From: an uncultured Spirochaetota bacterium
GTDB taxonomy: Bacteria > Spirochaetota > Spirochaetia > SZUA-6 > Fen-1364
NCBI GenBank assembly: GCA_963820525.1
Contig: CAWGAA010000003.1
Coordinates: 832,001 to 896,000, forward strand
Direction: 5' to 3'
Length of the DNA: 64,000 nucleotides
Shown: piece by piece, positions 3,419 through 27,721 of the stretch
Layout of the letters: each line of letters opens with the position of its first letter
Numbering within the stretch: the stretch's first letter is position 1
Made by a program: the position numbers and the translations under genes
The notes under the pieces: generated by a model
The model's database searches: none
The model's input: the letters and a program-made list of their open reading frames with translations, nothing else
What the model was told of the DNA's origin: nothing

Positions 3419-3551
3419 ACTTAACAGCACGTATACGCTTCGGCGCCCGGTAGGGCGCCTCGGGCTCCGCGGCGCTTCAGCGCGCCGCTACGCCACATGG
3501 CCTTCGGCCTTGTTGGCCTCGGGCCACGTCGTATACGTGCGGCCGTTGAAC
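3419..3551 (+). repeat. attC site (A-type)
   Basis: ACTTAAC...gcacgtatacg/cgtatacgtgc...GTTGAAC with a branched GC-rich interior. Confidence 0.9.
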
Positions 3552-5050
3552 AAAATCGCTCCGCGATGGTTTTCATCGAGCCCTAGTCTCCATTCGCCGC
3601 CCTGAAAGCAAGACAGATGTTTCCCGCTTGTTATACAGCATGAGCTGTATTGAAGCGGCAACGGTTTTTCCAAGACCCAAATTCGAAGTCGCCGATGTTT
3701 TCAGACAAAGCACTCAGTTGCTAAAAGGCATCAGTTATGATCAGTGGAAAGTCGTAAACGCAATCATAAACTGCCGCGGTCCGAAATTGGGCGGCCATAA
3801 ACTTGTTTGCCATGAATGCGGGTATGAACAAATATCCTATAATTCATGCAGGAACCGGCATTGCCCCAAATGCCAGGCGAGCAAGCAGGCGCAATGGGTT
3901 TACGAGCGGACACAAGAGCTTCTACCCATAAAATATTTCCATATCGTCTTCACCGTCCCGGCGGTATTGAATTCCCTTATTCTCCAGAATAAAAGAGTGC
4001 TCTACGACATTCTCTTTCACGCCGCAAACGAGACTCTTCAAGAAGCCGCGGGAAACCCGAAGAATCTCGGCGCTAAGATCGGGTTTATCGCCATTCTCCA
4101 CACCTGGAGCCAAAACCTACTTGACCATCCACATCTGCACTGCATTGTTACCGGAGGGGGATTGAGCCGGGATAAATCCGCATGGATTGAAAGCAGGAAC
4201 AACTTCTTTATCTCGATACACATTCTCAATCGACTGTTCAGAGGTAAATACCTGCATTATTTGAAACAGGCATATGCAGCAAAAGAGTTGAGTTTCTTTG
4301 GTAAGTTACGCAAGACAGCAGAGACAGCCGGGTTTGCAAAGGTGTTGGATGAATGTTATGCGAAAAAATGGATCGTCTACGCCAAAAAGCCGTTTTCCAA
4401 TCCGTTACGTGTACTGAAATATATAGGGCGCTATACGCATCGGGTAGCGATCAGCAACAAACGGATTTTGAATTTCACCGGCGGAAACGTGAGCTTTATC
4501 TGGAAGGACTACAGGGATAGAAACCGAAAAAAGGTAATGACACTTGCCGCCTCCGAGTTCATGAGAAGATTTCTCCTGCATGTGCTGCCGGAAGGATTCA
4601 AGCGTATACGATTTTACGGCCTCTTGAGCAACGGGCACAAAAATGAAAATCTGAAATACATCCGTCGTTTGTTATGCATCGATCTAGAATCCCAACAACA
4701 ATCGTTTGAATCTTTCTCGGAAGCACCTGAGATCATTGAAAAACGATGCCCGCGCTGCAATAGTGCTAATATACAAATCATTGAACTTCCACCGGAAGAG
4801 GCATCTGAAAGTTATTGGAACAGCGCGTAATAAAACCCATAGCGCGGGCGGAGCGACTTCGTTCAACATAGGGTTTACGCTCCGCTCCCTTTGGTCGCTC
4901 CGGGCTCCACCACATGCCCCTCTGGCACAGGGGTTGCAGGTCAAATCTTCTTACGGTCCTCAAAGATGTGTGGTACACTCCTGTCTATGCTTTGCGGGGG
5001 CAACCCCTGTGCCAGCCCTTCGGGACGGGGCATGTCGTAAACCCTTTACG
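3546..5050 (+). mobile_element. IS91-transposase gene cassette, copy 1 (1,505 bp)
   Basis: Bounded by G|TT crossover points; same length and ORF as copies 2 and 3. Confidence 0.88.
3628..4830 (+). CDS. IS91-family (HUH/Y2) rolling-circle transposase
   Basis: Zn motif CHECG...SCRNRHCPKC, HUH motif HPHLH, Y2 motif YIGRY. Confidence 0.93.
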   Translation: MLYSMSCIEAATVFPRPKFEVADVFRQSTQLLKGISYDQWKVVNAIINCRGPKLGGHKLVCHECGYEQISYNSCRNRHCPKCQASKQAQWVYERTQELLPIKYFHIVFTVPAVLNSLILQNKRVLYDILFHAANETLQEAAGNPKNLGAKIGFIAILHTWSQNLLDHPHLHCIVTGGGLSRDKSAWIESRNNFFISIHILNRLFRGKYLHYLKQAYAAKELSFFGKLRKTAETAGFAKVLDECYAKKWIVYAKKPFSNPLRVLKYIGRYTHRVAISNKRILNFTGGNVSFIWKDYRDRNRKKVMTLAASEFMRRFLLHVLPEGFKRIRFYGLLSNGHKNENLKYIRRLLCIDLESQQQSFESFSEAPEIIEKRCPRCNSANIQIIELPPEEASESYWNSA

Positions 5051-5056
5051 TTAAAT
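4861..5056 (+). repeat. attC site (196 bp) of IS91 cassette 1
   Basis: GTTCAAC-ata-gggtttacg...cgtaaaccc-tttac-GTTAAAT. Confidence 0.85.
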
Positions 5057-5490
5057 GACAGCGCAACGGGATTTGGAAGTGCGACCATTTGAAGAATTCA
5101 TTTGGGTAATTAGCCTGATGCGTTATGGTTTTTAGATTTCTTTACTTGTCTTTTCTACGACATCTGCGGCCTTCCTCGCCGCATTTCGGAGTCCTCTTGT
5201 GGGGGTGCGATCACTTTATGAGTAGCTGATCTCTCAACGTGGGAGAACAGGCCGCAGAATCAACGTAGTATTCTAGTATAAATGCCTTCTATATACCTGC
5301 TCTTGAGAGCCGTGGGTTGTTCGTAATTGACTGGCAGAGTATATTCCAAAGGGCGCCGTCATTTAACAGAGCGTATATGCTCCGGCGCCCTGTTCGGGCG
5401 CCTCCGGGCTCCGCGGCGCTGCGGCGCGCCGCTCCGCCACATGGCCCTCGGCCTTGTTGGCCTCGGGCCACGTCGTATACGCTCGGCCCG
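5051..5490 (+). other. ORF-less cassette A (homologous to 16800-17243)
   Basis: Ends GTTAAATGACA.../...CGTCATTTAAC; no ORF shared with its homologue. Confidence 0.8.
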
Positions 5491-5496
5491 TTGAAC
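5361..5496 (+). repeat. attC site (A-type)
   Basis: ATTTAAC...GTTGAAC with the same interior scaffold as 3419. Confidence 0.9.
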
Positions 5497-6995
5497 AAAA
5501 TCGCTCCGCGATGGTTTTCATCGAGCCCTAGTCTCCATTCGCCGCCCTGAAAGCAAGACAGATGTTTCCCGCTTGTTATACAGCATGAGCTGTATTGAAG
5601 CGGCAACGGTTTTTCCAAGACCCAAATTCGAAGTCGCCGATGTTTTCAGACAAAGCACTCAGTTGCTAAAAGGCATCAGTTATGATCAGTGGAAAGTCGT
5701 AAACGCAATCATAAACTGCCGCGGTCCGAAATTGGGCGGCCATAAACTTGTTTGCCATGAATGCGGGTATGAACAAATATCCTATAATTCATGCAGGAAC
5801 CGGCATTGCCCCAAATGCCAGGCGAGCAAGCAGGCGCAATGGGTTTACGAGCGGACACAAGAGCTTCTACCCATAAAATATTTCCATATCGTCTTCACCG
5901 TCCCGGCGGTATTGAATTCCCTTATTCTCCAGAATAAAAGAGTGCTCTACGACATTCTCTTTCACGCCGCAAACGAGACTCTTCAAGAAGCCGCGGGAAA
6001 CCCGAAGAATCTCGGCGCTAAGATCGGGTTTATCGCCATTCTCCACACCTGGAGCCAAAACCTACTTGACCATCCACATCTGCACTGCATTGTTACCGGA
6101 GGGGGATTGAGCCGGGATAAATCCGCATGGATTGAAAGCAGGAACAACTTCTTTATCTCGATACACATTCTCAATCGACTGTTCAGAGGTAAATACCTGC
6201 ATTATTTGAAACAGGCATATGCAGCAAAAGAGTTGAGTTTCTTTGGTAAGTTACGCAAGACAGCAGAGACAGCCGGGTTTGCAAAGGTGTTGGATGAATG
6301 TTATGCGAAAAAATGGATCGTCTACGCCAAAAAGCCGTTTTCCAATCCGTTACGTGTACTGAAATATATAGGGCGCTATACGCATCGGGTAGCGATCAGC
6401 AACAAACGGATTTTGAATTTCACCGGCGGAAACGTGAGCTTTATCTGGAAGGACTACAGGGATAGAAACCGAAAAAAGGTAATGACACTTGCCGCCTCCG
6501 AGTTCATGAGAAGATTTCTCCTGCATGTGCTGCCGGAAGGATTCAAGCGTATACGATTTTACGGCCTCTTGAGCAACGGGCACAAAAATGAAAATCTGAA
6601 ATACATCCGTCGTTTGTTATGCATCGATCTAGAATCCCAACAACAATCGTTTGAATCTTTCTCGGAAGCACCTGAGATCATTGAAAAACGATGCCCGCGC
6701 TGCAATAGTGCTAATATACAAATCATTGAACTTCCACCGGAAGAGGCATCTGAAAGTTATTGGAACAGCGCGTAATAAAACCCATAGCGCGGGCGGAGCG
6801 ACTTCGTTCAACATAGGGTTTACGCTCCGCTCCCTTTGGTCGCTCCGGGCTCCACCACATGCCCCTCTGGCACAGGGGTTGCAGGTCAAATCTTCTTACG
6901 GTCCTCAAAGATGTGTGGTACACTCCTGTCTATGCTTTGCGGGGGCAACCCCTGTGCCAGCCCTTCGGGACGGGGCATGTCGTAAACCCTTTACG
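5491..6995 (+). mobile_element. IS91-transposase gene cassette, copy 2
   Basis: Repeat of 3546-5050 at offset 1,945. Confidence 0.88.
5573..6775 (+). CDS. IS91-family transposase
   Basis: Translation identical to 3628-4830. Confidence 0.93.
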   Translation: MLYSMSCIEAATVFPRPKFEVADVFRQSTQLLKGISYDQWKVVNAIINCRGPKLGGHKLVCHECGYEQISYNSCRNRHCPKCQASKQAQWVYERTQELLPIKYFHIVFTVPAVLNSLILQNKRVLYDILFHAANETLQEAAGNPKNLGAKIGFIAILHTWSQNLLDHPHLHCIVTGGGLSRDKSAWIESRNNFFISIHILNRLFRGKYLHYLKQAYAAKELSFFGKLRKTAETAGFAKVLDECYAKKWIVYAKKPFSNPLRVLKYIGRYTHRVAISNKRILNFTGGNVSFIWKDYRDRNRKKVMTLAASEFMRRFLLHVLPEGFKRIRFYGLLSNGHKNENLKYIRRLLCIDLESQQQSFESFSEAPEIIEKRCPRCNSANIQIIELPPEEASESYWNSA

Positions 6996-7001
6996 TTATA
7001 G
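6806..7001 (+). repeat. attC site of IS91 cassette 2
   Basis: Matches 4861-5050, followed by GTTATAG. Confidence 0.85.
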
Positions 7002-7005
7002 GCCA

Positions 7006-7044
7006 TTGCGCCAAGAGTTTTTGCAGTATAAGGTATTTTTATGC
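7006..7044 (+). promoter_or_regulatory. Cassette-internal promoter + degenerate attI-like site
   Basis: TTGCGC-N15-TATAAG; GTATAAG-GTATT-TTTATGC (the G of GTT is a T). Confidence 0.45.
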
Positions 7045-7292
7045 GTCTATTTTTTGGATGGCTCCCAATGTACAAGGGCCTCCAACGAAAGCCCAGCGAC
7101 ACAGAACTTAACGCGTTCGGTGCTGGTACTCGCGATCCTAGTCGATACTCCGTGATTAAGTGCACAGCTCAGCACGAAACCCATATTATATTGGATAGCA
7201 CTACTTGCCGGGCTGTGTTGCAATCCCCCGTCACCGGGGGGTCGCACTCTCACGAAAAGTAGCGCGCCGTGTAGCTTTCCAAGGAGGGTTCC

Positions 7293-7841
7293 ATGCTTCC
7301 TAATGTCCTTAACAGCACTGGACTCCTTGCATTCACAATCGGGATAGGCTACTCTGTACTCGTTCCCATTTGGCCGCTCTTGCGTATTCCACACTACCTC
7401 TGGCTTAAGATCCTCCATGACAAGAAGATCGACGCTAGATACACATACGCTGATCGTAGAAAGGACTTGCCGTGCATCCTGGGAGTAATAGAGAGAATGC
7501 TCTACCTCCTCTCCATGCTCTACGGCCATCCCGAATTCGTTGCACTATGGCTTGGGCTCAAATCGGCCGGACAGTGGAAATCTTGGTCGAAAGGAGAGAC
7601 CTATCCGATATCTTCGACGAATAAGCAACCTGCAACCGAAACAATCAACGGCAGATCAATCGCCTCCATTTTCTTCATCGGCAGCGGGCTATCTCTCCTG
7701 TTCTCGGCTGGGGGATTCTTGTTGGCAACGGGCTGGGATTGTCAGCGCGTGGACGCCATCACAGTCGCGGCTGGTATACTCATCCTCACATCGCTGATCC
7801 ATCTCTTTCTCTTCGCAAGGTTCAAGCGCTACGATCCATGA
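7293..7841 (+). CDS. Hypothetical membrane protein
   Basis: RBS AGGAGG, several hydrophobic segments, followed by a B-type attC. Confidence 0.75.
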   Translation: MLPNVLNSTGLLAFTIGIGYSVLVPIWPLLRIPHYLWLKILHDKKIDARYTYADRRKDLPCILGVIERMLYLLSMLYGHPEFVALWLGLKSAGQWKSWSKGETYPISSTNKQPATETINGRSIASIFFIGSGLSLLFSAGGFLLATGWDCQRVDAITVAAGILILTSLIHLFLFARFKRYDP

Positions 7842-7846
7842 TGGAC

Positions 7847-7956
7847 GAATAACAAATCGTTGACCGCCGTGCTGCTGTCTATGAGACTCGCCTTAGTCTG
7901 GAAGTCATGAGGATGCAGGGGGCTCTACGGGGCGGCAGCTCAGCTTTATTTTAGGC
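7847..7956 (+). repeat. Degenerate attC (B-type)
   Basis: GAATAAC-aaatc-gttg...ctcagctttat-TTTAGGC. Confidence 0.6.
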
Positions 7957-8331
7957 TCTTCGCGGAATCGAGTGGGTAAAATTCGGGTGATTTTTAGCGG
8001 TTTGTGGTTCTGCATCCGAGAATTATGCGCATGCAACATGAGTTCATCCCAAATTCCCTCGAATTCCCACGGTTTTCTGAGCATTCTTGGTAACGAAATC
8101 TCGCTCGTTTTATTTCATGACACCTAAAATCTACCCACGAACGGCGTTGACTGCCTTTCATATTTGTAACACATTTTTAGGCACGATAACACCACCTAAT
8201 CCTTTACTGAGTAATAAGATACGTCCCATTCTACTACTTTTTTACCCACTCGAGAACACGAAGACCCTTATTTTATATTTTTAAGGGGATCTAAATATAA
8301 TTGAACGATCAATATATAATGGCGCAACGGT

Positions 8332-8349
8332 CTATAATTGGAGTTATAG
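8332..8349 (+). repeat. Collapsed attC (only R''-like and R' boxes remain)
   Basis: CTATAAT-tgga-GTTATAG flanked by the cassette-end motifs ggcgcaacgg / gccattgcgcc. Confidence 0.6.
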
Positions 8350-8366
8350 GCCATTGCGCCAGGCTG

Positions 8367-8385
8367 ACATAATGTAATGTTAGAT
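8367..8385 (+). promoter_or_regulatory. Cassette-internal attI-like site
   Basis: ACATAAT-GTAAT-GTTAGAT; GTTAGATGCCA pairs with TGGCATCTAGC at 9608-9618. Confidence 0.6.
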
Positions 8386-8407
8386 GCCATTAAAGGGAAA
8401 GGGTATA

Positions 8408-9607
8408 ATGAGTCTGCCACACTGGTTGCGTTCCATCGACAACGGCAGGATTGGAGAGGCGCGTACACGTGCTATACTGATCGATCGCTTCTGGATTCTG
8501 GAACGGAGCGTTGATATTGAGGGCGCCGATTTCATCGTCCAGCGCAAGATCTGGGGCCGCAATCTCCTAGACGAAAGGGCTCCACGACTGGGATATGTAC
8601 AGTCTAAGTTCGCCCAGGACGAGGCAACCAGACTGGAGATACATTCCGACTATGTGCTTGATTCCGATAAACAGCCGCGTGACGAATTCTTCCTATTTGT
8701 ACATACTGGAGTGCCTGGTTCTGAGACGATCTACTTTTTTGCCGCTCGAGACATCATTCAAACATTTCACAAGGGTGCCGACTGCTTCATGGTGTCAATG
8801 GGAGATGTGAAAAAGCTGCCCGATTCTCAAGTCCATTCCACAGACTACGTGCTGTCGGTCATCGAGCACGCCCTGACTCAGGCAGATTTCCGGAAGAATC
8901 GCCTTTTCTATCACTACTTGAGGCTTGATGATACAATTGACACTCCAATTGACCACGATTTCACACTTCCACTAAGCAACTATTGGGGCGATGTCGTGCA
9001 TGGCATCCAGGAGATAAAGTTAAGAACCAACACACTAATTCATGACCTTGAACACGATATTGCGAAGCTCAAGGTGGCTTTAGGGACTTCTGACCCAGTT
9101 CAGTTTATGGAGACTTTTGAATTCGAGCATTTCTACGTCCTTGAAGACTTCTTCTATCGAAACAGCAAATACTTCGATAGCGAATTCTATAATGTATTGG
9201 TCAATCACAAGAAGAGAGTCAAATTACTCAGGGGGCGCGGCCTGTTGCAACAGTTCATTCTATTAAAATCGCACGTGGCTCGAGAAGTGGAGGCTAGAAT
9301 AGGAAAACACAAGGAGGAGGTCGAAGAGTATTTTTGTGTTGAGTTCAGATTACGGACAAGCGATCTATCAATTCTCGAAGTTAAGGACTATGGCGCTAAG
9401 CGCGAGAAAGTAGTTCCCCCCAAGCCCAGCGGCGTCCAGGAGTTTTATGGGGTGATCAACACAGACGACACCTACACCTTGTACGTTCGAGGTATGGATG
9501 TATTCTCGGGTGACGATGTAGCCAAGCGAGCACTCAGCTACTTAACCGACAAGTTTGATGAGGTGCTTCTTGAGCAACTATTCGGAGAAGCTGAACTCTA
9601 TGGCTGA
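8408..9607 (+). CDS. Putative PD-(D/E)XK nuclease (DUF4365-like N-terminus)
   Basis: GRIGE...DIEGADF...YVQSKF pattern; start 8384 or 8408. Confidence 0.6.
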   Translation: MSLPHWLRSIDNGRIGEARTRAILIDRFWILERSVDIEGADFIVQRKIWGRNLLDERAPRLGYVQSKFAQDEATRLEIHSDYVLDSDKQPRDEFFLFVHTGVPGSETIYFFAARDIIQTFHKGADCFMVSMGDVKKLPDSQVHSTDYVLSVIEHALTQADFRKNRLFYHYLRLDDTIDTPIDHDFTLPLSNYWGDVVHGIQEIKLRTNTLIHDLEHDIAKLKVALGTSDPVQFMETFEFEHFYVLEDFFYRNSKYFDSEFYNVLVNHKKRVKLLRGRGLLQQFILLKSHVAREVEARIGKHKEEVEEYFCVEFRLRTSDLSILEVKDYGAKREKVVPPKPSGVQEFYGVINTDDTYTLYVRGMDVFSGDDVAKRALSYLTDKFDEVLLEQLFGEAELYG

Positions 9608-9611
9608 TGGC

Positions 9612-9727
9612 ATCTAGCAAATCGTTAAAGTTATCCGTCTGAGAGCCTCTTGGAACTGTCTTTTTTTTCCGCAGAACTGTAAGTACATGGCTTCCGGTGG
9701 GGCGCCAACTCAACTCTATGGTTATAG
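9612..9727 (+). repeat. attC (B-type; R'' reads AGC instead of AAC)
   Basis: ATCTAGC-aaatc-gtta...ctcaactctatg-GTTATAG. Confidence 0.7.
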
Positions 9728-9836
9728 CGCTTCAGTTCTGGGTCGCGACCGATCCAACCCGTTGCCTCGAAAGCGTCCTGATAACCTGCCTTGAAATGTG
9801 CCTTATCTTCTTGTACCCTGGTCTTGGAGTCCAATA

Positions 9837-10922
9837 ATGACGACAACGCTGGCTGAAAGAATCCTATCCAGTGGCGCTTCTTCCGAGACGTTCTCCGAGG
9901 CGCTTTCGAAACAAGATCTATCCCCGGTATTTGTATGCGGGGACGCTCTGGAAACACTCCGGAAGTTTCCTTCTGAGTCTATTGACTCCTGCCTTACAAG
10001 TCCTCCGTATTGGGGAAAACGCGAGTACGACTCAGGTGGCATTGGCCTCGAACCTACTCACAAACTATATATCGACCATTTGGCTGAAGTGTTCTCGGAG
10101 CTACGGCGCGTCCTTAAATTGACCGGTTCCTTCTGGCTTAATATTGGTGACTCCTACCAAAACAAAGCGCTTCTCGGCATTCCTTGGAGGCTTGCTCTAC
10201 GGTTGGTTGACACTCAAGGCTGGGTACTTCGTAACAGCGTAATATGGAACAAAGTGAAGGGCGGGCCGGACAATACCGGCGACAGACTTAGAAACATACA
10301 TGAGGATCTTTTTCATTTCGTTAAGTCCGCGAAAGACTACTACTATGATTCAGCCTCAATCCGGACAAATCCGCACCAAGCCAAGGTAGTAAACGGCGCC
10401 ATCGTATCAGCAACTGGTGTAACAGGCGTCAGGTACCGAAGGCAGATTGAGCTTTCGACCTCGCTGACTGAGTCCGAGAAGGAGACAGCGCTGTCTGAAT
10501 TAGAGAAGATGCTCGATAGAATTAGGAACAAAGAAATTGCCGACTTTCGGATGATCATCCGCGGGCAGCAGAGAACAACTCACTCGGATTCCACTAGGGT
10601 ATCGGGACGAGCAAAGGAGCTTGCCACAAAAGGGTTCTACTTCCTCATTTATCATCCGGACGGCAGCAAACCAAGTGACGTCTGGGAGATTATCCCGGAG
10701 GACACGCAGAAGCGTGAAGCCCATTTTGCTCCTTATCCGGAAGACCTTTGTCGAATTCCGATCCTCTCGACTTGCCCTCCCGGTGGTGTGGTAATCGATC
10801 CCTTCGTTGGTACTGGAACAACCACTTTGGTAGCATTCAAGTTGCAGAGAAGGTCCATTGGAATCGATATCTCCGAAGCATATCTCAGGCACGCCAGCGA
10901 AAGGTGTAACCTGCTGCTATGA
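9837..10922 (+). CDS. DNA methyltransferase, beta-class N4-C/N6-A
   Basis: TSPPY motif IV precedes DPFVGTGTT motif I. Confidence 0.9.
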   Translation: MTTTLAERILSSGASSETFSEALSKQDLSPVFVCGDALETLRKFPSESIDSCLTSPPYWGKREYDSGGIGLEPTHKLYIDHLAEVFSELRRVLKLTGSFWLNIGDSYQNKALLGIPWRLALRLVDTQGWVLRNSVIWNKVKGGPDNTGDRLRNIHEDLFHFVKSAKDYYYDSASIRTNPHQAKVVNGAIVSATGVTGVRYRRQIELSTSLTESEKETALSELEKMLDRIRNKEIADFRMIIRGQQRTTHSDSTRVSGRAKELATKGFYFLIYHPDGSKPSDVWEIIPEDTQKREAHFAPYPEDLCRIPILSTCPPGGVVIDPFVGTGTTTLVAFKLQRRSIGIDISEAYLRHASERCNLLL

Positions 10923-11768
10923 GCCGAATATCGGAACTATTCGCCCATTCCACCATGAGCACGGGAATAGAGTGGAAGGACGTGGTTGAAAAACAGTACT
11001 GTCCCTATCTGAACAGGAAATGCCTGAAGATACGAAAAAGCGATCCTGATGTCTCAATCGGAACTTGCAGCGTTCTTTATGGCGATCCGAAAGGCATCGT
11101 CTTAATATGCCCATTTCGGCTACTCGAACGTAAGCAGATATTCTTCGACGCCTTGCATCTTCTAACTCATCACGAACCGGGCAACGAATTGCATGTGGTC
11201 CCTGAGATCAGTCTTCCCGGGGGCAGCGTCGACTACTTCCTGGTTTCGGCAAACGCTGACTACATCAGGGACTTTGTTGGAATTGAACTGCAGAGCAATG
11301 GACACAACTGGCACGGTGTGGCCCGAGCGTCAGCGATTCCTCAAGGAGTCCAGCGTTTCGGTCTTGAAATCAGAAACATCCTCGGAAAAAGGCTTCGGAA
11401 TCAACTGGAAGATGACCGCAAAAACAACACTGATTCAGCTTCTCCACAAGATCCAGACATTCCAGAAACTAAATCGGCACCTCGCTCTCGTGATTCAAGA
11501 CACCTTTCTTGCCTATCTTCGAGATCAGTTCAGGTTCGACCACATAAAGAAAGTCAGCATAGGTGATCCCATGCACTTTCACGCCTACAAAGTGAACCTC
11601 AGAAAGCGACGATACAGAATCGAGCTCAGCGAAAGAGTAAGTACCAACTCAGACGGAATTGAAACATGCCTCGGTCTGCAGGCAGACACTAATGTTGAAC
11701 TCGTGAGTATCGAAGAACAGATACGGAAGAAGATGTCTGACAGGACACTTCTGATACTCGAATCCTAG
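10919..11768 (+). pseudogene. NotI-family restriction endonuclease, frameshifted near 11294
   Basis: CPY...C.K...GTC...ICPFR Cys cluster. Removing one base joins GIELQ to AMDTTG. Overlaps the MTase stop (ATGA). Confidence 0.78.
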
Positions 11769-11839
11769 TAGAACGTGGGTGCTCCCAAATGAGGCGCTAT
11801 AACATGTGGTTAGATTTGATATCGTGTGGCCGCAACGGC

Positions 11840-11938
11840 CTATAACAACGCGTACACGCTCCGCTCCCTTCGGTCGCTCCGGGCTTCGCCACATGCCTCG
11901 CTTCGCTCGGCACGTCGTGTACGCGCGGGACGTTATGG
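11840..11938 (+). repeat. attC site (A-type)
   Basis: CTATAAC...cgcgtacacg/cgtgtacgcg...GTTATGG. Confidence 0.9.
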
Positions 11939-11942
11939 GCAA

Positions 11943-11981
11943 TTGCGCCAGGAGTCTTTCCAGCATAATGCAATGTTATGG
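11943..11981 (+). promoter_or_regulatory. Cassette-internal promoter + attI-like site
   Basis: TTGCGC-N15-CATAAT; GCATAAT-GCAAT-GTTATGG. Confidence 0.6.
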
Positions 11982-12928: not shown

Positions 12929-12942
12929 ATGCGTCAGAAACA

Positions 12943-13056: not shown

Positions 13057-13079
13057 ATTCTTGACTCGGTTCCTGAGCA

Positions 13080-15619: not shown

Positions 15620-16648
15620 GTGAATGATATGACAACAGTTAATGTTAATGATTTCAACCAAGAAAAAGAATGCATCTATAAAGGAGAACGCTATTCCGTT
15701 CGGGACAATGGAGCGGTATTTCGACATCAACGAAACGGAAAGCGTAAGCGCCCCAATGATAATCAATGGACATTTGGAAAGGAAAAAATTGAAAATCCCT
15801 ATTTGCTTATCTCGAATATTCGCGTTCATAGAATTGTGGCCACAGCTTTTCACGGAGAGCCACCTGACCCTAAATATGTTGTAGATCATATTGATTCAAA
15901 TTGTAGGAATAATCGACCTGAGAATCTGAGATGGCTCACCCGCTTAGAAAATGCACTTAAAAATCCAGCGACTCGAAAAAAGATTGAATATCTATGTGGC
16001 AGCGTTGAAGCATTTCTTGAAAATCCTTCGATGTTAAATGATCTTCAAAGTGATCCCAACTTCACATGGATGCGAACAGTCACGCCAGAAGAAGCACAAA
16101 ACTGTATGAGGCGTATGTCTCTTTGGGCAAACACTAATAAAAAATCTACAAAATCAACCAGTATGATCAATTACAAAAGTTCTTTTGGCAAAAGAGCGCT
16201 AAAACCACTTCAAAAGTGGGAAGCTGGTCTAGCTGGAGAGCCGGGATTAGATTTTGCTTTAACGCCATGCTGTGGACAATATATGTGGGGGGCAGATGCT
16301 TATTTCCCTTGTTGTCCACAAAATTTTGGAGATGATCCTCTTGATGATTACTTTCAAAATCTTAAGGTTGGTGCTGTGTTTGCTTATAATGATGATGATA
16401 TTTTTCCAAAACTTACAGTATTTAAATCTGTAATCCTTAAAAGCAAATCATCAATTATAGTGATGTGCGAAAGATCAGATTGTAATTGGTCAATTGTTGG
16501 AATTATGCTTAATGAGAAATCACATTTTATTCATTTCTATCTCGGATCATACTCTAATAAAAGGGAAGCCGACAATGCATTTTCCATCAAAAAAGGTTTA
16601 AATGACTTTTGGTCAGATGGATATGCTAAATCCTGGGATCTTAACTGA
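15620..16648 (+). CDS. HNH endonuclease domain protein
   Basis: VHRIVATAF...VDHIDSNCRNNRPENLRW. Confidence 0.88.
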   Translation: MNDMTTVNVNDFNQEKECIYKGERYSVRDNGAVFRHQRNGKRKRPNDNQWTFGKEKIENPYLLISNIRVHRIVATAFHGEPPDPKYVVDHIDSNCRNNRPENLRWLTRLENALKNPATRKKIEYLCGSVEAFLENPSMLNDLQSDPNFTWMRTVTPEEAQNCMRRMSLWANTNKKSTKSTSMINYKSSFGKRALKPLQKWEAGLAGEPGLDFALTPCCGQYMWGADAYFPCCPQNFGDDPLDDYFQNLKVGAVFAYNDDDIFPKLTVFKSVILKSKSSIIVMCERSDCNWSIVGIMLNEKSHFIHFYLGSYSNKREADNAFSIKKGLNDFWSDGYAKSWDLN

Positions 16649-19221: not shown

Positions 19222-19339
19222 GATAGAAAATACTTATTATAATTTTAGGTGTTAATTAAAATATACAAAAAAAGCATAATTTAATATCGCCTCAGCCGTC
19301 CATGGCTTCGGCGGAATTTTAAAAGGGGCTGGCTACGGC

Positions 19340-19429
19340 ATATAACAGCCGGTTGCCGGCGTCGCTACGCTCCGCTCAAATCGCGCTCCCGTTGGTCGCG
19401 CGACTTCGGCAACCGGCGGGACGTTATGC
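19340..19429 (+). repeat. attC site
   Basis: ATATAAC-a-gccggttgccg...cggcaaccggc-gggac-GTTATGC. Confidence 0.9.
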
Positions 19430-19433
19430 GCCA

Positions 19434-19473
19434 TTGCACCAAGAGGTATTTACTACATAGTATATTGTTATGC
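19434..19473 (+). promoter_or_regulatory. Cassette-internal promoter + attI-like site
   Basis: TTGCAC-N16-CATAGT; ACATAGT-ATATT-GTTATGC; GTTATGCGCGCC pairs with GGCATGCATAAC ending at 23611. Confidence 0.6.
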
Positions 19474-20787
19474 GCGCCTTTGCATCGATAGAACATGCAA
19501 ACGCGGCCATTGCCGTGCCGATGAAATTGCGAGCGCAGATTACGGGAGGCAATCGGCTTTAATAGCGCCGTTCGCCATGCTATGATCGTCGACAATAGGA
19601 AGATTGCAGTGGATCACGACAATGCGGGATCTAATCCAATTATCAGTCTGTCAAGCCATTTTCACGATAATATCGCCCAATACGAGGCAGACGGATATGA
19701 TGAAGCGAACGTGCGCGTTGACTTCATTGACAAAATGTTCGAACTCCTGGACTGGGACGTTCGAAACGACACCAATGCAAGCGAACGCTTTCGCGACGTT
19801 GTTCGAGAAGACAAGATTGAGATTGGCGGAAGAGAGAAGGCACCTGATTATAGCTTCAGAATTGGAGGGCAGAGGGTATTCTTTGTCGAAGCCAAAAAGC
19901 CGCACATTCGGATAGGAAGTGACCTTGGAGCCGCCTACCAGCTAAGAAGGTATGGCTACTCTGCGAAGCTTCCAGTTTCTATCCTAACCAACTTCAAGGA
20001 ATTCGCAGTATATGATACCCGGATTAAGCCGAACCACGGAGACGAGAGCGCCGTTGCAAGGCTCTTCTATTGCACATATGAGGACTATCCAGAACAGTTT
20101 CCGTTTCTCTATAGCACCTTTTCTAAGCCTTCCGTGATTAAAGGGGACCTCGACCGCTACGTCATAGACAATCGCACCAAGAAGGGTACTGCTGAAGTTG
20201 ACGAGGATTTTCTTTCATTGCTCTCGGGCTGGCGTAAAATCCTGGCAAAGCGAATTTCATCGCAGAACCCAGACATTGACGTCTTCCAGCTCAACCATGC
20301 AATCCAAGTACTTATTGACCGTATGGTCTTCCTTCGTATTGCAGAAGCTCACGACCTTGAAGAATACGCAACTCTCCAAAAAGCCGTCGAAAAAGCGAAC
20401 GGCTATTGGAATCTGAAAGGCGTGTTCGCCCTAGCCGATCAAAAGTACAATTCAGGGTTGTTTGCAGTGGATGATTTCCTTAATTCGCTAAAGATCGAGG
20501 ACAATGTTTTTCGGGACATAGTACAGGACCTCTATTATCCCAAGTGCCCGTATGAGTTCAGTGTTCTGCCTATAGAGATACTTGGTAAAGCATACGAGCA
20601 GTTTCTCGGACAAATCATTCGGCTAACTCCCTCACATCAAGTGAAGATTGAAGAAAAGCCCGAGGTGCGGAAAGCTGGCGGGGTCTTCTACACCCCAGAG
20701 TACATTGTGAGATATATCGTCCAATACACCCTGGGAGAGAAATTGAAGAAGGCATCGCCACAGGACGTGCCCGCTCTTTCCGTCCTA

Positions 20788-21926
20788 GTGTAGTGCGTCT
20801 CACGCTTCTTTACATTTGGCGATTTTGGCGAGGATGCGCTCAACCGGGGCACTCCAGACGAAGGCTTGCGGGTTTTGATTGTGATTCTCAAGGTACTGCT
20901 TAATAGCCGCAATCAGAGTCTGGACGTTGGGGAAAGTCCCACGACGAATTCTTTTATCGGTTATCTCACGAAACCAGCGTTCGACCATATTCAACCACGA
21001 ACTAGACGTCGGGATGAAATGCAGATGGTAGCGGGGGTGGCGTTGAATCCATGCTTTCACCCGAGCATGTTTGTGAGTCCCGTAGTTGTCCACGATCAGG
21101 TGAAGCTCCAATTCTGGTGGTGTCTCGACATCGATTTTTTTCAGAAACCGGATGAACTCCTGATGCCGATGCCGTGGCATGCAATCACCGATGACCCGTC
21201 CATCCAGCATGCTCAGAGCGGCGAACAACGTTGTCGTGCCGTTGCGTTTATAGTCGTGCGACTGACGAGCTGGAACACCCGGCCGCATGGGCAACAGCGG
21301 CTGGGTTCGGTCGAGCGCTTGAATCTGGCTCTTTTCATCCACACATAATACAAGAGCCTTATCCGGTGGATTCAGATACAGTCCGACTACGTCCTTCAGC
21401 TTCTCCACGAAGTTTTTATCACGACTGAGTTTGAACGTTTCCACCAGATGGGGTTTGAGATTGTGTTGTTTCCAGATGCGGCGAATACTGGCTTCGGAGA
21501 GTTTCTGTGCTCTGGCCATGCTCCGCGTACTCCAATGGGTGGCGTTTGCGGGAGTACTGTGCAAGGTTGCCTCTACCACTTTCTTGATTTTTCCTGCTGA
21601 GATGCGGGGATTTCTTCCCGGCCGGGGCGCGTCCTTCAGCAAACCCTCCACGCGCAGGGCGAGAAATCGCTGACGCCAAAGCTGAACCGTGGGACGTGAC
21701 ACGTGCAAAGCCCTGGCGATGTCCTGACTGTCTTGGCCATCAGCCGCTCGTGTGATGATCTGTGCGCGAATCACCTGCCGGTGAGGGAGACTTCTACTGT
21801 GTTTCCACGTGTCCAGCGTCCCGCGCTCGGCTTCGCAGAGTATAATCGCTTGGGCTTTCCTGCTCATTTCAAGGGTAGTATACAAGGAAGCGAGACATAT
21901 GTCAATAGATTTGTGACGCACTACAC
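20788..21926 (-). mobile_element. IS630-family insertion sequence
   Basis: IRs gtgtagtgcgtc/gacgcactacac; TA duplication at a CTAG target. Confidence 0.92.
20800..21921 (-). CDS. IS630-family transposase
   Basis: HTH region plus VDEKSQIQAL...VDNYGTH...SSWLNMVE DDE motifs. Confidence 0.93.
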   Translation of the reverse strand: MRHKSIDICLASLYTTLEMSRKAQAIILCEAERGTLDTWKHSRSLPHRQVIRAQIITRAADGQDSQDIARALHVSRPTVQLWRQRFLALRVEGLLKDAPRPGRNPRISAGKIKKVVEATLHSTPANATHWSTRSMARAQKLSEASIRRIWKQHNLKPHLVETFKLSRDKNFVEKLKDVVGLYLNPPDKALVLCVDEKSQIQALDRTQPLLPMRPGVPARQSHDYKRNGTTTLFAALSMLDGRVIGDCMPRHRHQEFIRFLKKIDVETPPELELHLIVDNYGTHKHARVKAWIQRHPRYHLHFIPTSSSWLNMVERWFREITDKRIRRGTFPNVQTLIAAIKQYLENHNQNPQAFVWSAPVERILAKIAKCKEA

Positions 21927-23604
21927 TAGATCCGGCGTGTGGAAGCGGCAGCTTTTTGATCAGCGCTTACGATTATCTGCTTGGCTGGCACCTTGACTTA
22001 TACTCAAGAGAAGAGAACGTTAAGAAGGCACTAAAAGGCGGACGCATTTATCAATTAAAAGGAGGAGGCTACCGTCTCACAATAGAAGAGAAGCAGCGCA
22101 TTCTCCTGAACAACATATTCGGTGTGGACATAGATCAGCAAGCTGTAGAAGTCACCCGACTCTCTCTCCTGATTAGGCTAATGGAGGGCGAGAACCGCCA
22201 GAGTTCAGGCGAGCTCTTCAAACACAGTGACTTCAAGCTACTTCCGAATTTGAACGAGAACATCAAGTGCGGTAACAGTCTGATAGGAACTGATTTCTAT
22301 GCGGCCCAAAAGCAGGATCTCTTCGCGATGGACGACATGCGTCGAATTAATGCGTTTGACTGGAAGACCGAATTCCCTGCCGTGATGGATCGCGGCGGCT
22401 TTGACTGCGTCATAGGCAATCCTCCATATACCTACCTCATTCAAGAGGCCGAGCAAAAGTACTTTGTAGCGAAGTACAGGTTCCAAGACTACCAGAAGGA
22501 CCTATACCTACTGTTTCTTGAACGGTATCAGTTCTTGCTCAAGGCTGGCGGTCTACTTGGAGTAATAGTTTCCAATACTTGGATGCCTTCGCTCACGTAT
22601 TCGAGCATTCGCAGCTACCTGGTAACCAACTACATCTGGAAGAGGGTACTCCATCTGCCGGAAAAGGTGTTCGAAGCCGTTGTCGATACTCACGTGCTCG
22701 TGTTTGAAAAGGGAACTCCTCCCAAGAACCGAAATGTAGAATTTGTCGTTGACGAAATGCGACGAGAGAAGATCTCGCGGCTTCACATCCTGAACATGTC
22801 CGATCTGCCGTTGGATGGGGAACCAATAAACATCCAATCGAGTCCAAGGGAGATGGCGCTTTTCAAGAGGATCGAGAGGTCCTGCTCGCCTCTGTCAGAT
22901 CATTTTTCCGTTTTCAACGGCGTTAAGCCGTTCGAGAAGGGCAAGGGAAAACCACCACAAACCGAAAAGATTTGCCAGGAGAAGCCCTTCGTAGTCGAAG
23001 GCAAGAGGCCGGACGCGACTTGGTCCCCGTTGCTTCGCGGTGGCCTAATTGGACGGTATGTCAATCTCTGGAACAAGGACTATTGGATTCTTTACGGGGA
23101 CTGGCTTGCCGCCCCACGTGATCCGAAGATCTTCGACGAGCCGGAGAAGATCGCAATAAGACAAACGGGAGATTCGCTAATCGCAACGTTGATTGGTCGA
23201 GGATATGTCATGAGAAACAACATGCATATAATTCTTCCGAAGACAGGAAAGCTTGATCTAAGATATCTCCTGGGGCTGCTAAATTCTCGGCTGTTCGACT
23301 TCATATACACAACCATGAATCCCGAGAAAGGTGAAGCACTGGCGGAGGTGAAAAAGCAGCACGTCGAAAGGCTACCCATCCACATAGTTAGGCAAGATAG
23401 CGCTTCCGAGGTGTCTTTGGCAGATAAGCTGATCGCTCTCGTTGACAATATCTTGCAGGCCCGAAAGGAAGCAATTATACACGCAAAGACCGAGCATGAC
23501 AAGAAACTTGTTGATTCTCGTGTTGCCGAAATGCAGAAGGAGATCGACGAGATTGTATTCGCACTCTATGGCATGAATCGAGACGACCTTGAAATCCTGG
23601 GCAT

Positions 23605-23718
23605 GCATAACAAATCGTTGCAGTAGTCGCCTTTAGAGCCGTCTGGATCGGAAGTTGCAGTTCGGAATACAAGATGAGGCGGGTTGATGTGGCGGCGCTA
23701 CTGAACTCTATGTTATGC
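23605..23718 (+). repeat. attC (B-type)
   Basis: GCATAAC-aaatc-gttgcag...ctgaactctat-GTTATGC. Confidence 0.85.
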
Positions 23719-23780
23719 TTCTTTTTGCTAAATGATCATGCATGTTGCAAAGCGCGGCAATATGATGGTAGCCTCCTAAA

Positions 23781-24962
23781 GTGATTCGAAGTAAACAAAA
23801 CCAACGCCCTTGGTATATAAACCAAGCCTATTGGCATGATCTTGCTACGAGATATATTGTGTCTGTTCAAAAAGTGAAAATGGGATCGCCTTATGCGGCA
23901 GAAATTGACGCTTTTCGCGAATTCAACATTGCTAAAGTCATCTTCGAAAGCAATCTCATTGAAGGGGCTGGACGTCCACTTGGTGAGACAAGGAAATTGA
24001 TTCTAGAATACTTTCCTCGATTCCCTTCAACTTTCACAGAATTCTATGGAACTGATGAGCGCGTGGATCTTCCACGGCTTCTCCTCAAGAATGGGCCATT
24101 TGCACAGATAAATGAGGAATTGCGCTCCTTGGGGTACGATCCAGCGCGCTTCACCCCAAGCATCAGCATGGCTGGGAGTTCAAGATCTGTAAAAGAGGTT
24201 GTTCAGCATCATAGCGCAATTCTCTATGCAATGTTTCATTCAATAGATTATCTCATCCATAGGACAATGTATGATTGGGCTCAGAGTCTTAAGACCGACA
24301 AACTTGATAAAAAATTGCAAAAAGAACTGGAAGAAGCAATCCTTAAGGAATACCCCCACGCAAGCACTCTAGAAGATATTCAAAGCCCAAAATTATTCGC
24401 CGAAAAAACAGTCAGCGAGTTGCATAAAACAATTGCTGAAGGAATTCTTCCAAACGATGCTAAGGTGGAAGCTGGAGAGTATAGAATTGATAACAGAATC
24501 GTCGGCTGGGACATAGTTTTCCCTTCACCAGAACTAATCTCCTTGATGATGCCGAAATTTGTGGATCGCGCAAATGACATTGTTCAGGGCATCCCTGTGA
24601 GAAAGCTGAACTTATTCGAGGCTGCAGCACGCATTTCGCATGATTTTGTTACAATTCATCCTTTTCCAGATTTCAATGGCAGGATCTCCAGAATTCTGAT
24701 GAACATGGTTTTACTCGCACATAATTGTCCATTTCCAGTAGCTCTTAAAGGCGGAAGCAAAGCCAAAGGCAAGTACTTTACCTCATTGAAGCGTGCGAAT
24801 AATGGCAATTTCATAGCACTATCCTCGCTTATCGCAATGCGGGTTACGGAGACATTCGAAGAACTCGACACGCATCTTAAGCGTGCTGGCCTTAGGAGCC
24901 TACTCACTTTGTCAAACCGGACACAGCGGAGCAACATTAGAAAATCAAACCCGAGAGATTAG
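23781..24962 (+). CDS. Fic-domain protein
   Basis: HPFPDFNGRISR motif. Confidence 0.9.
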   Translation: MIRSKQNQRPWYINQAYWHDLATRYIVSVQKVKMGSPYAAEIDAFREFNIAKVIFESNLIEGAGRPLGETRKLILEYFPRFPSTFTEFYGTDERVDLPRLLLKNGPFAQINEELRSLGYDPARFTPSISMAGSSRSVKEVVQHHSAILYAMFHSIDYLIHRTMYDWAQSLKTDKLDKKLQKELEEAILKEYPHASTLEDIQSPKLFAEKTVSELHKTIAEGILPNDAKVEAGEYRIDNRIVGWDIVFPSPELISLMMPKFVDRANDIVQGIPVRKLNLFEAAARISHDFVTIHPFPDFNGRISRILMNMVLLAHNCPFPVALKGGSKAKGKYFTSLKRANNGNFIALSSLIAMRVTETFEELDTHLKRAGLRSLLTLSNRTQRSNIRKSNPRD

Positions 24963-24976
24963 GCAGAAGTACAGAA

Positions 24977-25093
24977 TCATAACAAGTTATGGGAGCTGTC
25001 TCCTTGAGTTCCGGTTGTTTTTATTTTGCATTGTTTGCTGTGTTTATAGAGGTCTGATTCGGCGGCGCAGCTCCACTCTATCATATGTTGAAG
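24977..25093 (+). repeat. attC (B-type, imperfect right end)
   Basis: TCATAAC...gggagctg/cagctcc...ctctatcatat-GTTGAAG. Confidence 0.6.
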
Positions 25094-25135
25094 AGATCTG
25101 GATAGAAATACATTATTATAATCTGGCGCAACGGC

Positions 25136-25205
25136 CTATAACCGCCCGTAATGTGCTTCGGTGCCCGCAAGAGCACCGAAGCACATTACGGGCAGCACGT
25201 TATAC
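25136..25205 (+). repeat. attC site (short, 70 bp)
   Basis: CTATAAC-c-gcccgtaatgtgcttcggtgc...gcaccgaagcacattacgggc...GTTATAC. Confidence 0.92.
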
Positions 25206-25283
25206 GACATTTTTTGTTGCAAGGTTCTTTTCCATGTTTATACTGTTTAGTAATCGCCCTGCATTTATCGGAGGTTAATCTTT

Positions 25284-26036
25284 ATGGACCAACTAGTTTA
25301 TGATTATTTCACACCTGAAGTCATATCCAAGCTCAAAACCTATGTTTATAGGTTGATTGATCCTCGAAATGGTGAAACTTTCTACATTGGCAAAGGAAAA
25401 GGAAACCGTATCTTCTCTCATATTAGTGCAGAAAAGAAGATAGAAGGAGACGATTATAGCAATAAAATCAAGCGTATACGTGAAATACGTTTAGCTGGAT
25501 TTGAAGTGGCTCATGTTATTCATAGGCATGGAATGGATGATTCTACCGCTTTTGAAGTTGAATCAGCTCTTATTGATGCATATCCCGGGCTTACAAACAT
25601 TGTAGACGGCAGTGGCGGGAATGAATTTGGAGCAATGCATGCTAAAGAAATAATCAAGCGCTATTCTGCAGAACCAGCAATTTTCAAACATAAAGCATTA
25701 CTTATAACTATCAATAGAACCGCAACCGAACAGTCAATATATAACGCAACTCGATTTGCCTGGAAAATAAGCAAATCAAAGGTTAAGGATGTGGAAATAG
25801 TGTTATCAACTGTTCAGGGTTTATTTGTGGGAGCCTTTATCCCATTAAAATGGCTTGATGCCACTGCGGAAAACTTTCCTGATCGCGCACAAGGTGAGGA
25901 CCGACCTGGTAGAATTGGATTTATAGGCAAGGAAGCTCCAGATGATATAAAACGTATGTATGTGGGTAAACGTATACCAGATGGATTTAGACCGCGGGGA
26001 GCCGCCAATCCCATAATGTATACATGGTCCCGATAA
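25284..26036 (+). CDS. LEM-3-like GIY-YIG nuclease domain protein
   Basis: YVYRLIDPRNGETFYIGKG...R...H; ESALID...LTN. Confidence 0.85.
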   Translation: MDQLVYDYFTPEVISKLKTYVYRLIDPRNGETFYIGKGKGNRIFSHISAEKKIEGDDYSNKIKRIREIRLAGFEVAHVIHRHGMDDSTAFEVESALIDAYPGLTNIVDGSGGNEFGAMHAKEIIKRYSAEPAIFKHKALLITINRTATEQSIYNATRFAWKISKSKVKDVEIVLSTVQGLFVGAFIPLKWLDATAENFPDRAQGEDRPGRIGFIGKEAPDDIKRMYVGKRIPDGFRPRGAANPIMYTWSR

Positions 26037-26088
26037 TTTGCTAATCATACTACCGGAAGTCGGCTCATGACGGGTAACAAAAAACGCC

Positions 26089-26222
26089 GTATAACAGCGC
26101 GTAATGTGCATCGCCGCCCTACGGGCGGCTCGGGCTCCGCGGCGCTGCAGCGCGCCGCTCCGCCACATGGCCCTCGCCCTTGTTGGGCTCGGGCCACGTC
26201 ACATACGCGCGGCTCGTTGAAC
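26089..26222 (+). repeat. attC site (A-type)
   Basis: GTATAAC...GTTGAAC. Confidence 0.9.
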
Positions 26223-27721
26223 AAAATCGCTCCGCGATGGTTTTCATCGAGCCCTAGTCTCCATTCGCCGCCCTGAAAGCAAGACAGATGTTTCCCGCTT
26301 GTTATACAGCATGAGCTGTATTGAAGCGGCAACGGTTTTTCCAAGACCCAAATTCGAAGTCGCCGATGTTTTCAGACAAAGCACTCAGTTGCTAAAAGGC
26401 ATCAGTTATGATCAGTGGAAAGTCGTAAACGCAATCATAAACTGCCGCGGTCCGAAATTGGGCGGCCATAAACTTGTTTGCCATGAATGCGGGTATGAAC
26501 AAATATCCTATAATTCATGCAGGAACCGGCATTGCCCCAAATGCCAGGCGAGCAAGCAGGCGCAATGGGTTTACGAGCGGACACAAGAGCTTCTACCCAT
26601 AAAATATTTCCATATCGTCTTCACCGTCCCGGCGGTATTGAATTCCCTTATTCTCCAGAATAAAAGAGTGCTCTACGACATTCTCTTTCACGCCGCAAAC
26701 GAGACTCTTCAAGAAGCCGCGGGAAACCCGAAGAATCTCGGCGCTAAGATCGGGTTTATCGCCATTCTCCACACCTGGAGCCAAAACCTACTTGACCATC
26801 CACATCTGCACTGCATTGTTACCGGAGGGGGATTGAGCCGGGATAAATCCGCATGGATTGAAAGCAGGAACAACTTCTTTATCTCGATACACATTCTCAA
26901 TCGACTGTTCAGAGGTAAATACCTGCATTATTTGAAACAGGCATATGCAGCAAAAGAGTTGAGTTTCTTTGGTAAGTTACGCAAGACAGCAGAGACAGCC
27001 GGGTTTGCAAAGGTGTTGGATGAATGTTATGCGAAAAAATGGATCGTCTACGCCAAAAAGCCGTTTTCCAATCCGTTACGTGTACTGAAATATATAGGGC
27101 GCTATACGCATCGGGTAGCGATCAGCAACAAACGGATTTTGAATTTCACCGGCGGAAACGTGAGCTTTATCTGGAAGGACTACAGGGATAGAAACCGAAA
27201 AAAGGTAATGACACTTGCCGCCTCCGAGTTCATGAGAAGATTTCTCCTGCATGTGCTGCCGGAAGGATTCAAGCGTATACGATTTTACGGCCTCTTGAGC
27301 AACGGGCACAAAAATGAAAATCTGAAATACATCCGTCGTTTGTTATGCATCGATCTAGAATCCCAACAACAATCGTTTGAATCTTTCTCGGAAGCACCTG
27401 AGATCATTGAAAAACGATGCCCGCGCTGCAATAGTGCTAATATACAAATCATTGAACTTCCACCGGAAGAGGCATCTGAAAGTTATTGGAACAGCGCGTA
27501 ATAAAACCCATAGCGCGGGCGGAGCGACTTCGTTCAACATAGGGTTTACGCTCCGCTCCCTTTGGTCGCTCCGGGCTCCACCACATGCCCCTCTGGCACA
27601 GGGGTTGCAGGTCAAATCTTCTTACGGTCCTCAAAGATGTGTGGTACACTCCTGTCTATGCTTTGCGGGGGCAACCCCTGTGCCAGCCCTTCGGGACGGG
27701 GCATGTCGTAAACCCTTTACG
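26217..27721 (+). mobile_element. IS91-transposase gene cassette, copy 3
   Basis: Repeat of 3546-5050 at offset 22,671. Confidence 0.88.
26299..27501 (+). CDS. IS91-family transposase
   Basis: Translation identical to copies 1 and 2. Confidence 0.93.
   Translation: MLYSMSCIEAATVFPRPKFEVADVFRQSTQLLKGISYDQWKVVNAIINCRGPKLGGHKLVCHECGYEQISYNSCRNRHCPKCQASKQAQWVYERTQELLPIKYFHIVFTVPAVLNSLILQNKRVLYDILFHAANETLQEAAGNPKNLGAKIGFIAILHTWSQNLLDHPHLHCIVTGGGLSRDKSAWIESRNNFFISIHILNRLFRGKYLHYLKQAYAAKELSFFGKLRKTAETAGFAKVLDECYAKKWIVYAKKPFSNPLRVLKYIGRYTHRVAISNKRILNFTGGNVSFIWKDYRDRNRKKVMTLAASEFMRRFLLHVLPEGFKRIRFYGLLSNGHKNENLKYIRRLLCIDLESQQQSFESFSEAPEIIEKRCPRCNSANIQIIELPPEEASESYWNSA

Follow-up and report, generated by a model that had tools for sequence, protein, structure and literature searches.

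Insertion sequences of the IS91 family undergo rolling-circle transposition catalysed by an HUH Y2 transposase, and ISfinder lists an IS91 subgroup whose members additionally carry a recombinase of unknown role. IS91-related HUH enzymes are also found in association with integrons. The ISCR elements adjoin class 1 integrons, but they lie outside the cassette array, have no attC site and are not cassettes. IS1111-attC elements and group IIC-attC introns parasitise integrons, and such parasites interrupt cassettes or attC sites. In the Vibrio cholerae array, IS3 and IS911 are described as embedded in cassettes (PMC11023631). Here we describe an element of the IS91 family that exists as a cassette in an integron-like array of non-canonical type, found in a 64,000-nt stretch of DNA from an uncultured Spirochaetota bacterium (positions 832001-896000 of contig C3 of its genome, G000; this whole stretch is referred to as the window). 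Like the integron parasites it is a selfish element inside a cassette array, and like the ISCR elements it has an IS91-related HUH enzyme. Unlike in either, the cassette consists of the transposase gene itself, and the sites on either side of it are intact. Our literature search, in which subscription journals were not covered, returned no paper in which an IS91 transposase forms a cassette and none in which an IntI-like recombinase lacking the IntI insertion heads an array.

In our view, an insertion sequence of the 'IS91 + tyrosine recombinase' type probably gave rise to the unit, a derivative that has no recombinase and has turned into a gene cassette of the array. The ends of the unit are the terminal inverted repeat and the left-end hairpin of that family of elements. 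Its 3' hairpin shares its architecture and part of its sequence with the array's own sites, which we call class-2 attC sites, and its junctions are the same G/TT crossovers (the slash marks the crossover) that bound the other cassettes. The locus resembles the IS91 family in having a transposase above the curated cut-off, and the recombinase-bearing IS91 subgroup in the terminal inverted repeat and in the left-end and right-end hairpins, which it has in common with relatives of 44-58% identity. It differs from that subgroup in having no recombinase gene in the cassette, and from the IS91 family in being bounded by attC-type crossovers within an array and in having a 3' hairpin that resembles the sites of the host array.

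An initial annotation of the window had described three apparently identical 1,505-bp units, each starting at the G/TT of a different attC and carrying the same 196-nt attC, with an IS91 transposase and no companion recombinase. This description was borne out in our analyses. A BLAST search against the whole genome gave three matches at 100% over 1505/1505 positions. In pairwise comparisons, the identity of the three begins 2-3 bases left of 3546, 5491 and 26217 and extends over 1508-1509 bases. The upstream attC-like site differs from unit to unit; the TT following its G forms the left junction, and on the right each unit is bounded by the G of its own 196-nt site (Table 1). In short-read contigs from four public runs of two studies, among which the source sample may be included, divergence sets in exactly at 3544-3547 and 5052-5053. 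The flanks of copy 3, as well as those of the two copies on contig C1, are also represented in these contigs. Therefore, we concluded that the repeats are real and not artefacts of assembly, a concern raised in the initial annotation. Contigs from a run of another study, 90-95% similar, also diverge at 3547 and 5053.

The copy number given in the initial annotation is exact for the window only, since the genome contains six copies in total. The three copies beyond the window are 93-96% identical to the unit. Two variants can be distinguished: type A, present three times behind attC sites, and type B (u4 and c1a), present at two diverged attI-like sites. The type B copies are 100% identical over the cassette, and the ~200 nt upstream of them are only 80-90% identical. 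Both are the first cassette, beside a tyrosine recombinase gene or its remnant read in the opposite direction. The neighbour of u4 is an intact gene for a 265-aa tyrosine recombinase (P0001), and that of c1a is a 30-codon remnant fusing the N- and C-termini of a paralogue. At u4 we observed a promoter-like site (10/12) directed into the first cassette. Thus, the earlier statement that there is no companion recombinase holds inside the unit, but a tyrosine recombinase gene lies beside the first-position copy, left of the window. The sixth copy, c1b, is a pseudogene, 5' truncated with a TAG stop.

All six copies are flanked by the G and the TTRxxx of attC- or attI-like sites, and whole-genome BLAST found none of the six outside a cassette context, which the initial annotation had proposed as a check. 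All are in class-2 contexts, and none is among the ~169 attC sites of the array of a true IntI on C1. The presence of identical units at different sites points to independent mobility, and the sequences indicate that the cassette moved recently into at least five different sites. Consistent with this, the proposal of a recently mobile selfish cassette is supported by the identical copies behind three attC sites and by the identical pair at two attI-like sites. The part of the proposal that named IntI as the mover, however, needs correction, as the recombinase of the array is not a canonical IntI (see below).

The open reading frame of the unit matches Y2_Tnp and Zn_Tnp_IS91 (PF04986, 207.7 bits; PF14319, 105.5 bits) and the NCBIfam IS91 transposase NF033538 (427.7 bits against a cut-off of 125). 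In the translation we read the motifs HPHLH (HxH) and Y-x3-Y, which are invariant among the four aligned proteins (alignment A2) and which we take to be the HUH motif and the two catalytic tyrosines. On these grounds the product is a bona fide IS91-family HUH/Y2 transposase. Types A and B differ at 28 synonymous and 16 non-synonymous codons on 253 and 935 sites, respectively, giving a dN/dS of about 0.15; the neutral expectation for non-synonymous to synonymous changes is ~3.7:1, and 10 of the 16 non-synonymous differences are in the C-terminal tail. The pseudogene copy has 26 synonymous and 26 non-synonymous differences. Judged by these counts, purifying selection has acted on the transposase between the two types. 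It therefore probably still matters and appears to be kept functional, and the idea of an HUH enzyme that makes single-stranded DNA for cassette shuffling stays alive for the same reason.

Next, we consider the relatives of the transposase. The closest ones among 25 genomes of the same family are 56-58% identical. An alignment-based scan of 185,579 species-representative genomes gave more than 610 relatives, the best at 56%; a scan of genome contigs with the single protein had found none. A metagenome-contig scan returned only two distant relatives (44-48%) and no further cassette-form copies. The nearest relatives, at 44-58% identity, come from many phyla. Applying our own script to these loci in other genomes, we located a tyrosine recombinase gene immediately upstream of the transposase, in the same orientation, for 77 of the 79 best relatives, and for all 60 that have at least 1100 nt of upstream sequence. 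The two misses are a locus with only 119 nt upstream (L107) and one that does have the gene, at 2864-3430, where the script mis-set the transposase start (L109). The cassette has no upstream recombinase gene, its leader being 94 nt only, and no IS91-type recombinase was found in G000. Among elements of this kind, it thus stands apart in having no recombinase gene.

The left end of the cassette fits the consensus of 54 relatives. The 5-bp hairpin at this end covaries: among 56 left ends the outer pair is A-T in 28, G-C in 26, C-G in one and unpaired in one. The pattern used to select left ends constrained no more than the three inner pairs and, in part, the fourth. The right end of the cassette is an inverted copy of the left terminal repeat. 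The 20-nt inverted ends that the initial annotation had quoted as following a cassette-end rule are indeed there, at 3545-3564 and 4848-4867 in copy 1. However, as both ends of the cassette are the ends of the family, the repeat is the inherited terminal inverted repeat of the recombinase-bearing IS91 subgroup. Likewise, the GTTC that had been pointed out as a possible HUH cleavage site is located in the R'' box, but it is weak evidence for such a site because the relatives have GTAC, GTCC or TTCAAG at that place.

In 38 of the 49 relatives with a recognisable left end, a hairpin of 33-125 nt begins no more than 12 nt after the right repeat; of the others, ten have no right repeat within four mismatches and one has no hairpin. 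In a set of loci hand-picked for clear repeats the hairpin is present in 18 of 19. By reading, the geometry of these right ends is an R''-like box, 0-2 nt, a stem, a loop, the stem, 5-6 nt (often CTAAG-like) and a core repeating the bases of the left junction. This arrangement is asymmetric like the class-2 sites and unlike class 1. In 16 of these 38 relatives, a direct repeat of at least 5 nt connects the left junction with the sequence behind the hairpin, as compared to 9% of mismatched controls. Two loci contain head-to-tail tandems of IS91 + recombinase elements (L117, 18-5030; L067, 148-5410), with the same short core, of 5 nt and 4 nt, respectively, at the left, middle and right junctions. 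Direct repeats and tandems of this kind are a signature of conservative site-specific recombination and are not expected from HUH transposition.

Two further features of these relatives were observed. In the three closest full-length ones, at 56-58% (L041, L042 and L043, in G022 and G016), the upstream recombinase gene is split by frameshifts, at places that differ between G022 and G016. At both of its junctions, locus L061 (2515-2524 and the tail after the right-end hairpin) reads GACAT in place of the GACTT of its relatives, and its R''-like box still matches GACTT.

The array on C3 spans from 826.7 kb to about window position 59,440 (~65 kb). Most of its sites are of class 2, about 135 nt long, with the layout AAC, 2 nt, an L stem of 10-12 bp, a branched centre, the L stem again, 4-6 nt and GTT. 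By reading, with the sites mapped by a heuristic of our own, their spacers are thus of 2 nt on one side and 4-6 nt on the other and their L stem is uninterrupted. Scans demanding complementarity between R'' and R' found nothing, as the hybrid junctions do not have such complementarity; a looser scan on the L boxes recovered the attC-like sites. The G and the first six bases of a cassette perfectly complement the R'' of its own site in 14 of the 20 array cassettes delimited by our list of sites, compared to 5 of 356 mismatched pairs, and some of the six misses are due to sites overlooked by the scan. All four transposase cassettes on C3 are complementary at 7/7 positions, and so is the R'' (ACTTAAC) of the site upstream of copy 1 to the start of that site's own cassette. 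Within the enlarged 196-nt site, 42 nt align at 92.9% identity with the class-2 site at window 11856-11897. We also tried co-mobilisation of flanking DNA by one-ended transposition as an account of the likeness between the sites upstream of copies 2 and 3, and rejected it, the likeness being that of the shared class-2 core.

P0001, whose gene lies about 5.3-5.4 kb left of the window, heads this array. It is 39% and 33% identical to the two true IntI proteins encoded on C1, which score above the TIGR02249 cut-off, and does not have their insertion. Its match to TIGR02249 reaches 191 bits, below the cut-off of 265, and falls into two pieces, with profile positions 179-237 left out. Against the solved Vibrio IntI chain 2a3v, 24 of its residues stand opposite 67, so that about 43 are missing; the alignments with the two IntI of the genome are gapped in this region as well. 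By its sequence, then, the recombinase of the C3 array is not a canonical IntI. In two genomes of another genus, the class-2 arrays begin with homologues that are 69-71% identical to P0001 (G001:C4, seven sites; G002:C15, two sites). A 53% homologue in another family (G068:C15) has a 135-nt site of class-2 geometry 4 kb away and probably heads a class-2 array as well. The transposase is absent from all three of these loci. In the first of them (L040, G001:C4, 474-4404) the seven sites are near-identical, 135-136 nt long and mostly ~445 nt apart, forming an amplified family of very small cassettes.

One of the true IntI genes heads a very large array with ~169 attC sites between 680 and 840 kb on C1, as counted by our own heuristic. 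These class-1 sites are canonical-looking, ~115 nt long, with spacers of 5-6 nt. Arrays stand beside the true IntI genes at G000:C1:683000-820000 and C1:1956600-1963800, the first of which is rich in near-identical short cassettes. Two class-1 attC sites of canonical type (114-116 nt) are found inside the class-2 array, at window 23605-23718 and C3:828847-828962, and this suggests that cassettes have passed between the genome's two systems.

We performed a quick phylogenetic analysis of the recombinases (LG+G4, SH-aLRT only). The input was 39 IS91-borne recombinases (intact open reading frames from loci of at least 7 kb), 15 IntI from 18 loci (three were dropped for stops or truncation), 24 of 120 hits of P0001 chosen as a spread, and two Xer outgroups. 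The tree consists of three clades, IntI (support 100), IS91-borne (96) and the P0001 family (80), with one member of the P0001 family placed beside the IS91-borne clade; the mutual order of the three is not resolved by the tree. This fits the placement given in an earlier preprint, where the IS91/IS3 recombinases are the closest homologues of IntI and lack its insertion (10.1101/542381). P0001 as the element's own recombinase in inverted position was rejected, since its clade stands apart from the 39 IS91-borne recombinases and the family heads arrays elsewhere without the transposase.

In common with integron gene cassettes and sedentary chromosomal integrons, the locus has cassettes of one open reading frame with a folded site at the 3' end, G/TT junctions and starts complementary to their own R''. 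Identical copies at different positions, and insertion at the first position next to a divergent recombinase gene with a promoter-like site, are further likenesses. Unlike in integrons, the recombinase has no IntI insertion (~43 residues fewer than 2a3v), and the class-2 sites, by reading, have an asymmetric spacer and a branched form of ~135 nt, as opposed to the canonical geometry of the genome's class-1 sites.

The life cycle that we propose is as follows. A site-specific tyrosine recombinase acting in trans would cut the cassette out and insert it elsewhere; the most likely one is P0001, the IntI-like protein without the IntI insertion at the head of the array, which would join the folded site with another attC or attI-like site. 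Repeated insertion would have raised the number of copies to six. The HUH/Y2 enzyme probably nicks at the left-end hairpin and displaces a single-stranded copy by the rolling circle, the least supported step of the proposal, and this foldable single strand would feed the recombinase.

Several points weigh against this reading. The acting recombinase could be the genome's two true IntI working in trans, given the two class-1 attC sites in the C3 array. Replicative resolution of the integron type alone can duplicate cassettes, so that three copies need no HUH enzyme. The cassette form is found in this genome only, besides the 90-95% similar contigs of the other study's run, and the relatives in species-representative genomes, at best 56% identical, are all of the recombinase-bearing type; a general role in arrays is therefore unlikely. 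The class-2 sites, by reading, appear to lack the canonical features of attC, and they were mapped with our own heuristic, by which some were missed (for example 30604-30740). The contigs of the four runs contain no joint for an excised circle and no empty site, forms that contigs cannot display; the only joint in them, a 73-nt skip in one contig, is uninformative. Finally, when the unit was scanned for promoters, the leader of the cassette itself had no promoter-like site.

It is possible, though on balance doubtful, that the transposase gene is only the cargo of a passive selfish cassette, with a tyrosine recombinase doing all the movement and the HUH enzyme having no part in the life cycle. 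The G/TT junctions and the rule relating the start to R'' are indeed the same as for other cassettes, the sister arrays function without a transposase gene, no promoter was seen in the leader and one copy is already a truncated pseudogene. However, the excess of synonymous changes between types A and B indicates purifying selection, and the covarying left-end hairpin has been retained together with both terminal repeats. As a cargo mobilised in trans would need neither this selection nor a conserved left hairpin, we think that the transposase still takes part.

Alternatively, rolling-circle transposition of the IS91 type could be autonomous, targeting the GTT core of folded attC sites with the recombinase uninvolved. 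The transposase is intact, the terminal repeats and the hairpin are kept, and IS91 elements insert beside a tetranucleotide target (PMC10288648). Nevertheless, this is quite unlikely: we did not observe insertion beside GTTC/CTTG without site-specific junctions, but units whose ends match the cassette crossovers to the base with 7/7 complementarity between start and R''. Two of the insertions are at attI-like sites beside a recombinase gene, no copy lies outside arrays, the putative GTTC is not conserved in relatives, and these relatives have the direct repeats and tandems not expected from HUH transposition. Most improbable of all is a domesticated helper, kept first by the host array to make single-stranded DNA that promotes the shuffling or creation of all cassettes, as the initial annotation had also suggested. 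Purifying selection on the gene and its first position behind a promoter-like site at both platforms would fit such a role. The homologous arrays of G001, G002 and G068, however, do not have the gene and argue against it, multiple copies of which one is decaying are typical of selfish DNA, and no relative closer than 56% was found in the 185,579 species genomes.

The preferred reading, an insertion sequence turned cassette, brings together in one context a transposase of the IS91 type, a folded site resembling attC and a recombinase that is IntI-like but has no I2 insertion. It hints that IS91-type elements and integron-like arrays, two kinds of mobile DNA, are related, and bears on the origin of cassettes, attC sites and integrons as well as on the role of the tyrosine recombinase in some IS91 elements. 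A bolder and in our view unlikely extension is that IS91 + recombinase elements, class-2 arrays and classical integrons are three branches of one two-enzyme system. In this system the HUH enzyme would make a single-stranded circle whose joined ends fold like attC, and an IntI-like recombinase would integrate it at a short core. The attC sites and cassettes would then descend from such folded ends, and this locus would represent a surviving intermediate, able to recombine folded sites although it has no I2 helix. The gain of this helix is held to be the innovation toward single-strand recombination (PMC7790495). Whether folded sites recombine without it, and whether an HUH enzyme feeds single-stranded DNA to an integron-type recombinase, can be tested here, with the 1.5-kb cassette in two variants and the two attI-like sites as natural substrates. 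If only the conservative reading is true, the locus is an insertion sequence that survives by borrowing the recombinase of an array.

Table 1. Coordinates of the cassettes, sites and neighbouring features (window positions unless a contig is given)
Feature	Position	Strand	Remarks
Upstream class-2 attC-like site, copy 1	3419..3551	+	R' (G/TTGAAC) is the left junction of copy 1
IS91-transposase cassette copy 1 (type A)	3546..5050	+	1505/1505 identical to copies 2 and 3
Left terminal repeat and hairpin (5 bp, 3-nt loop; 3555-3567)	3546..3569	+	homologous to left end of IS91 + recombinase elements
IS91-family HUH/Y2 transposase gene	3640..4830	+	ATG 3640; alternative TTG 3628; stop 4828-4830
Right terminal inverted repeat	4848..4867	+	last 7 nt (4861-4867, GTTCAAC) double as R'' of the cassette attC
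196-nt attC-like site of cassette	4861..5056	+	class-2 type, enlarged centre; crossover G/TT between 5050 and 5051
Upstream class-2 attC-like site, copy 2	5361..5496	+	
IS91-transposase cassette copy 2 (type A)	5491..6995	+	open reading frame 5585-6775; attC 6806-7001
Upstream class-2 attC-like site, copy 3	26089..26222	+	
IS91-transposase cassette copy 3 (type A)	26217..27721	+	open reading frame 26311-27501; attC 27532-27727
Copy u4	C3:826727-828230		95.8% to window unit; full length
Copy c1a	C1:3095569-3097072	-	95.8% to window unit; full length
Copy c1b	C1:2097891-2099255	-	94.9% to window unit; starts at unit base 141; one in-frame TAG
P0001 gene	C3:825826-826623		
Conserved leader of class-2 cassettes	6996-7040, 11933-11975, 19424-19470, 27722-27765, ~30741-30790		
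Modification/defence-type cargo	9798-10922, 15620-16648, 19582-20793, 21956-23626, 23781-24962, 25284-26036		
DDE insertion sequence	20800-21921	-	
DDE insertion sequence	29008-30522	-	
DDE insertion sequence	41707-43254		

Other features of the array were also noted. Many class-2 cassettes start with a conserved leader, TTATRNGNCATTGCRCC, followed after ~17 nt by a TATAAT-like sequence, which looks like a built-in promoter. The cargo of the cassettes is rich in domains of the DNA-modification and defence type, among them N6/N4 methylase, HNH, HSDR_N, Eco57I-type methylase, Fic and GIY-YIG. Ordinary DDE insertion sequences are located within the array, one with DDE_3 and one DDE_Tnp_1_6 element present twice, at 86-92% identity.

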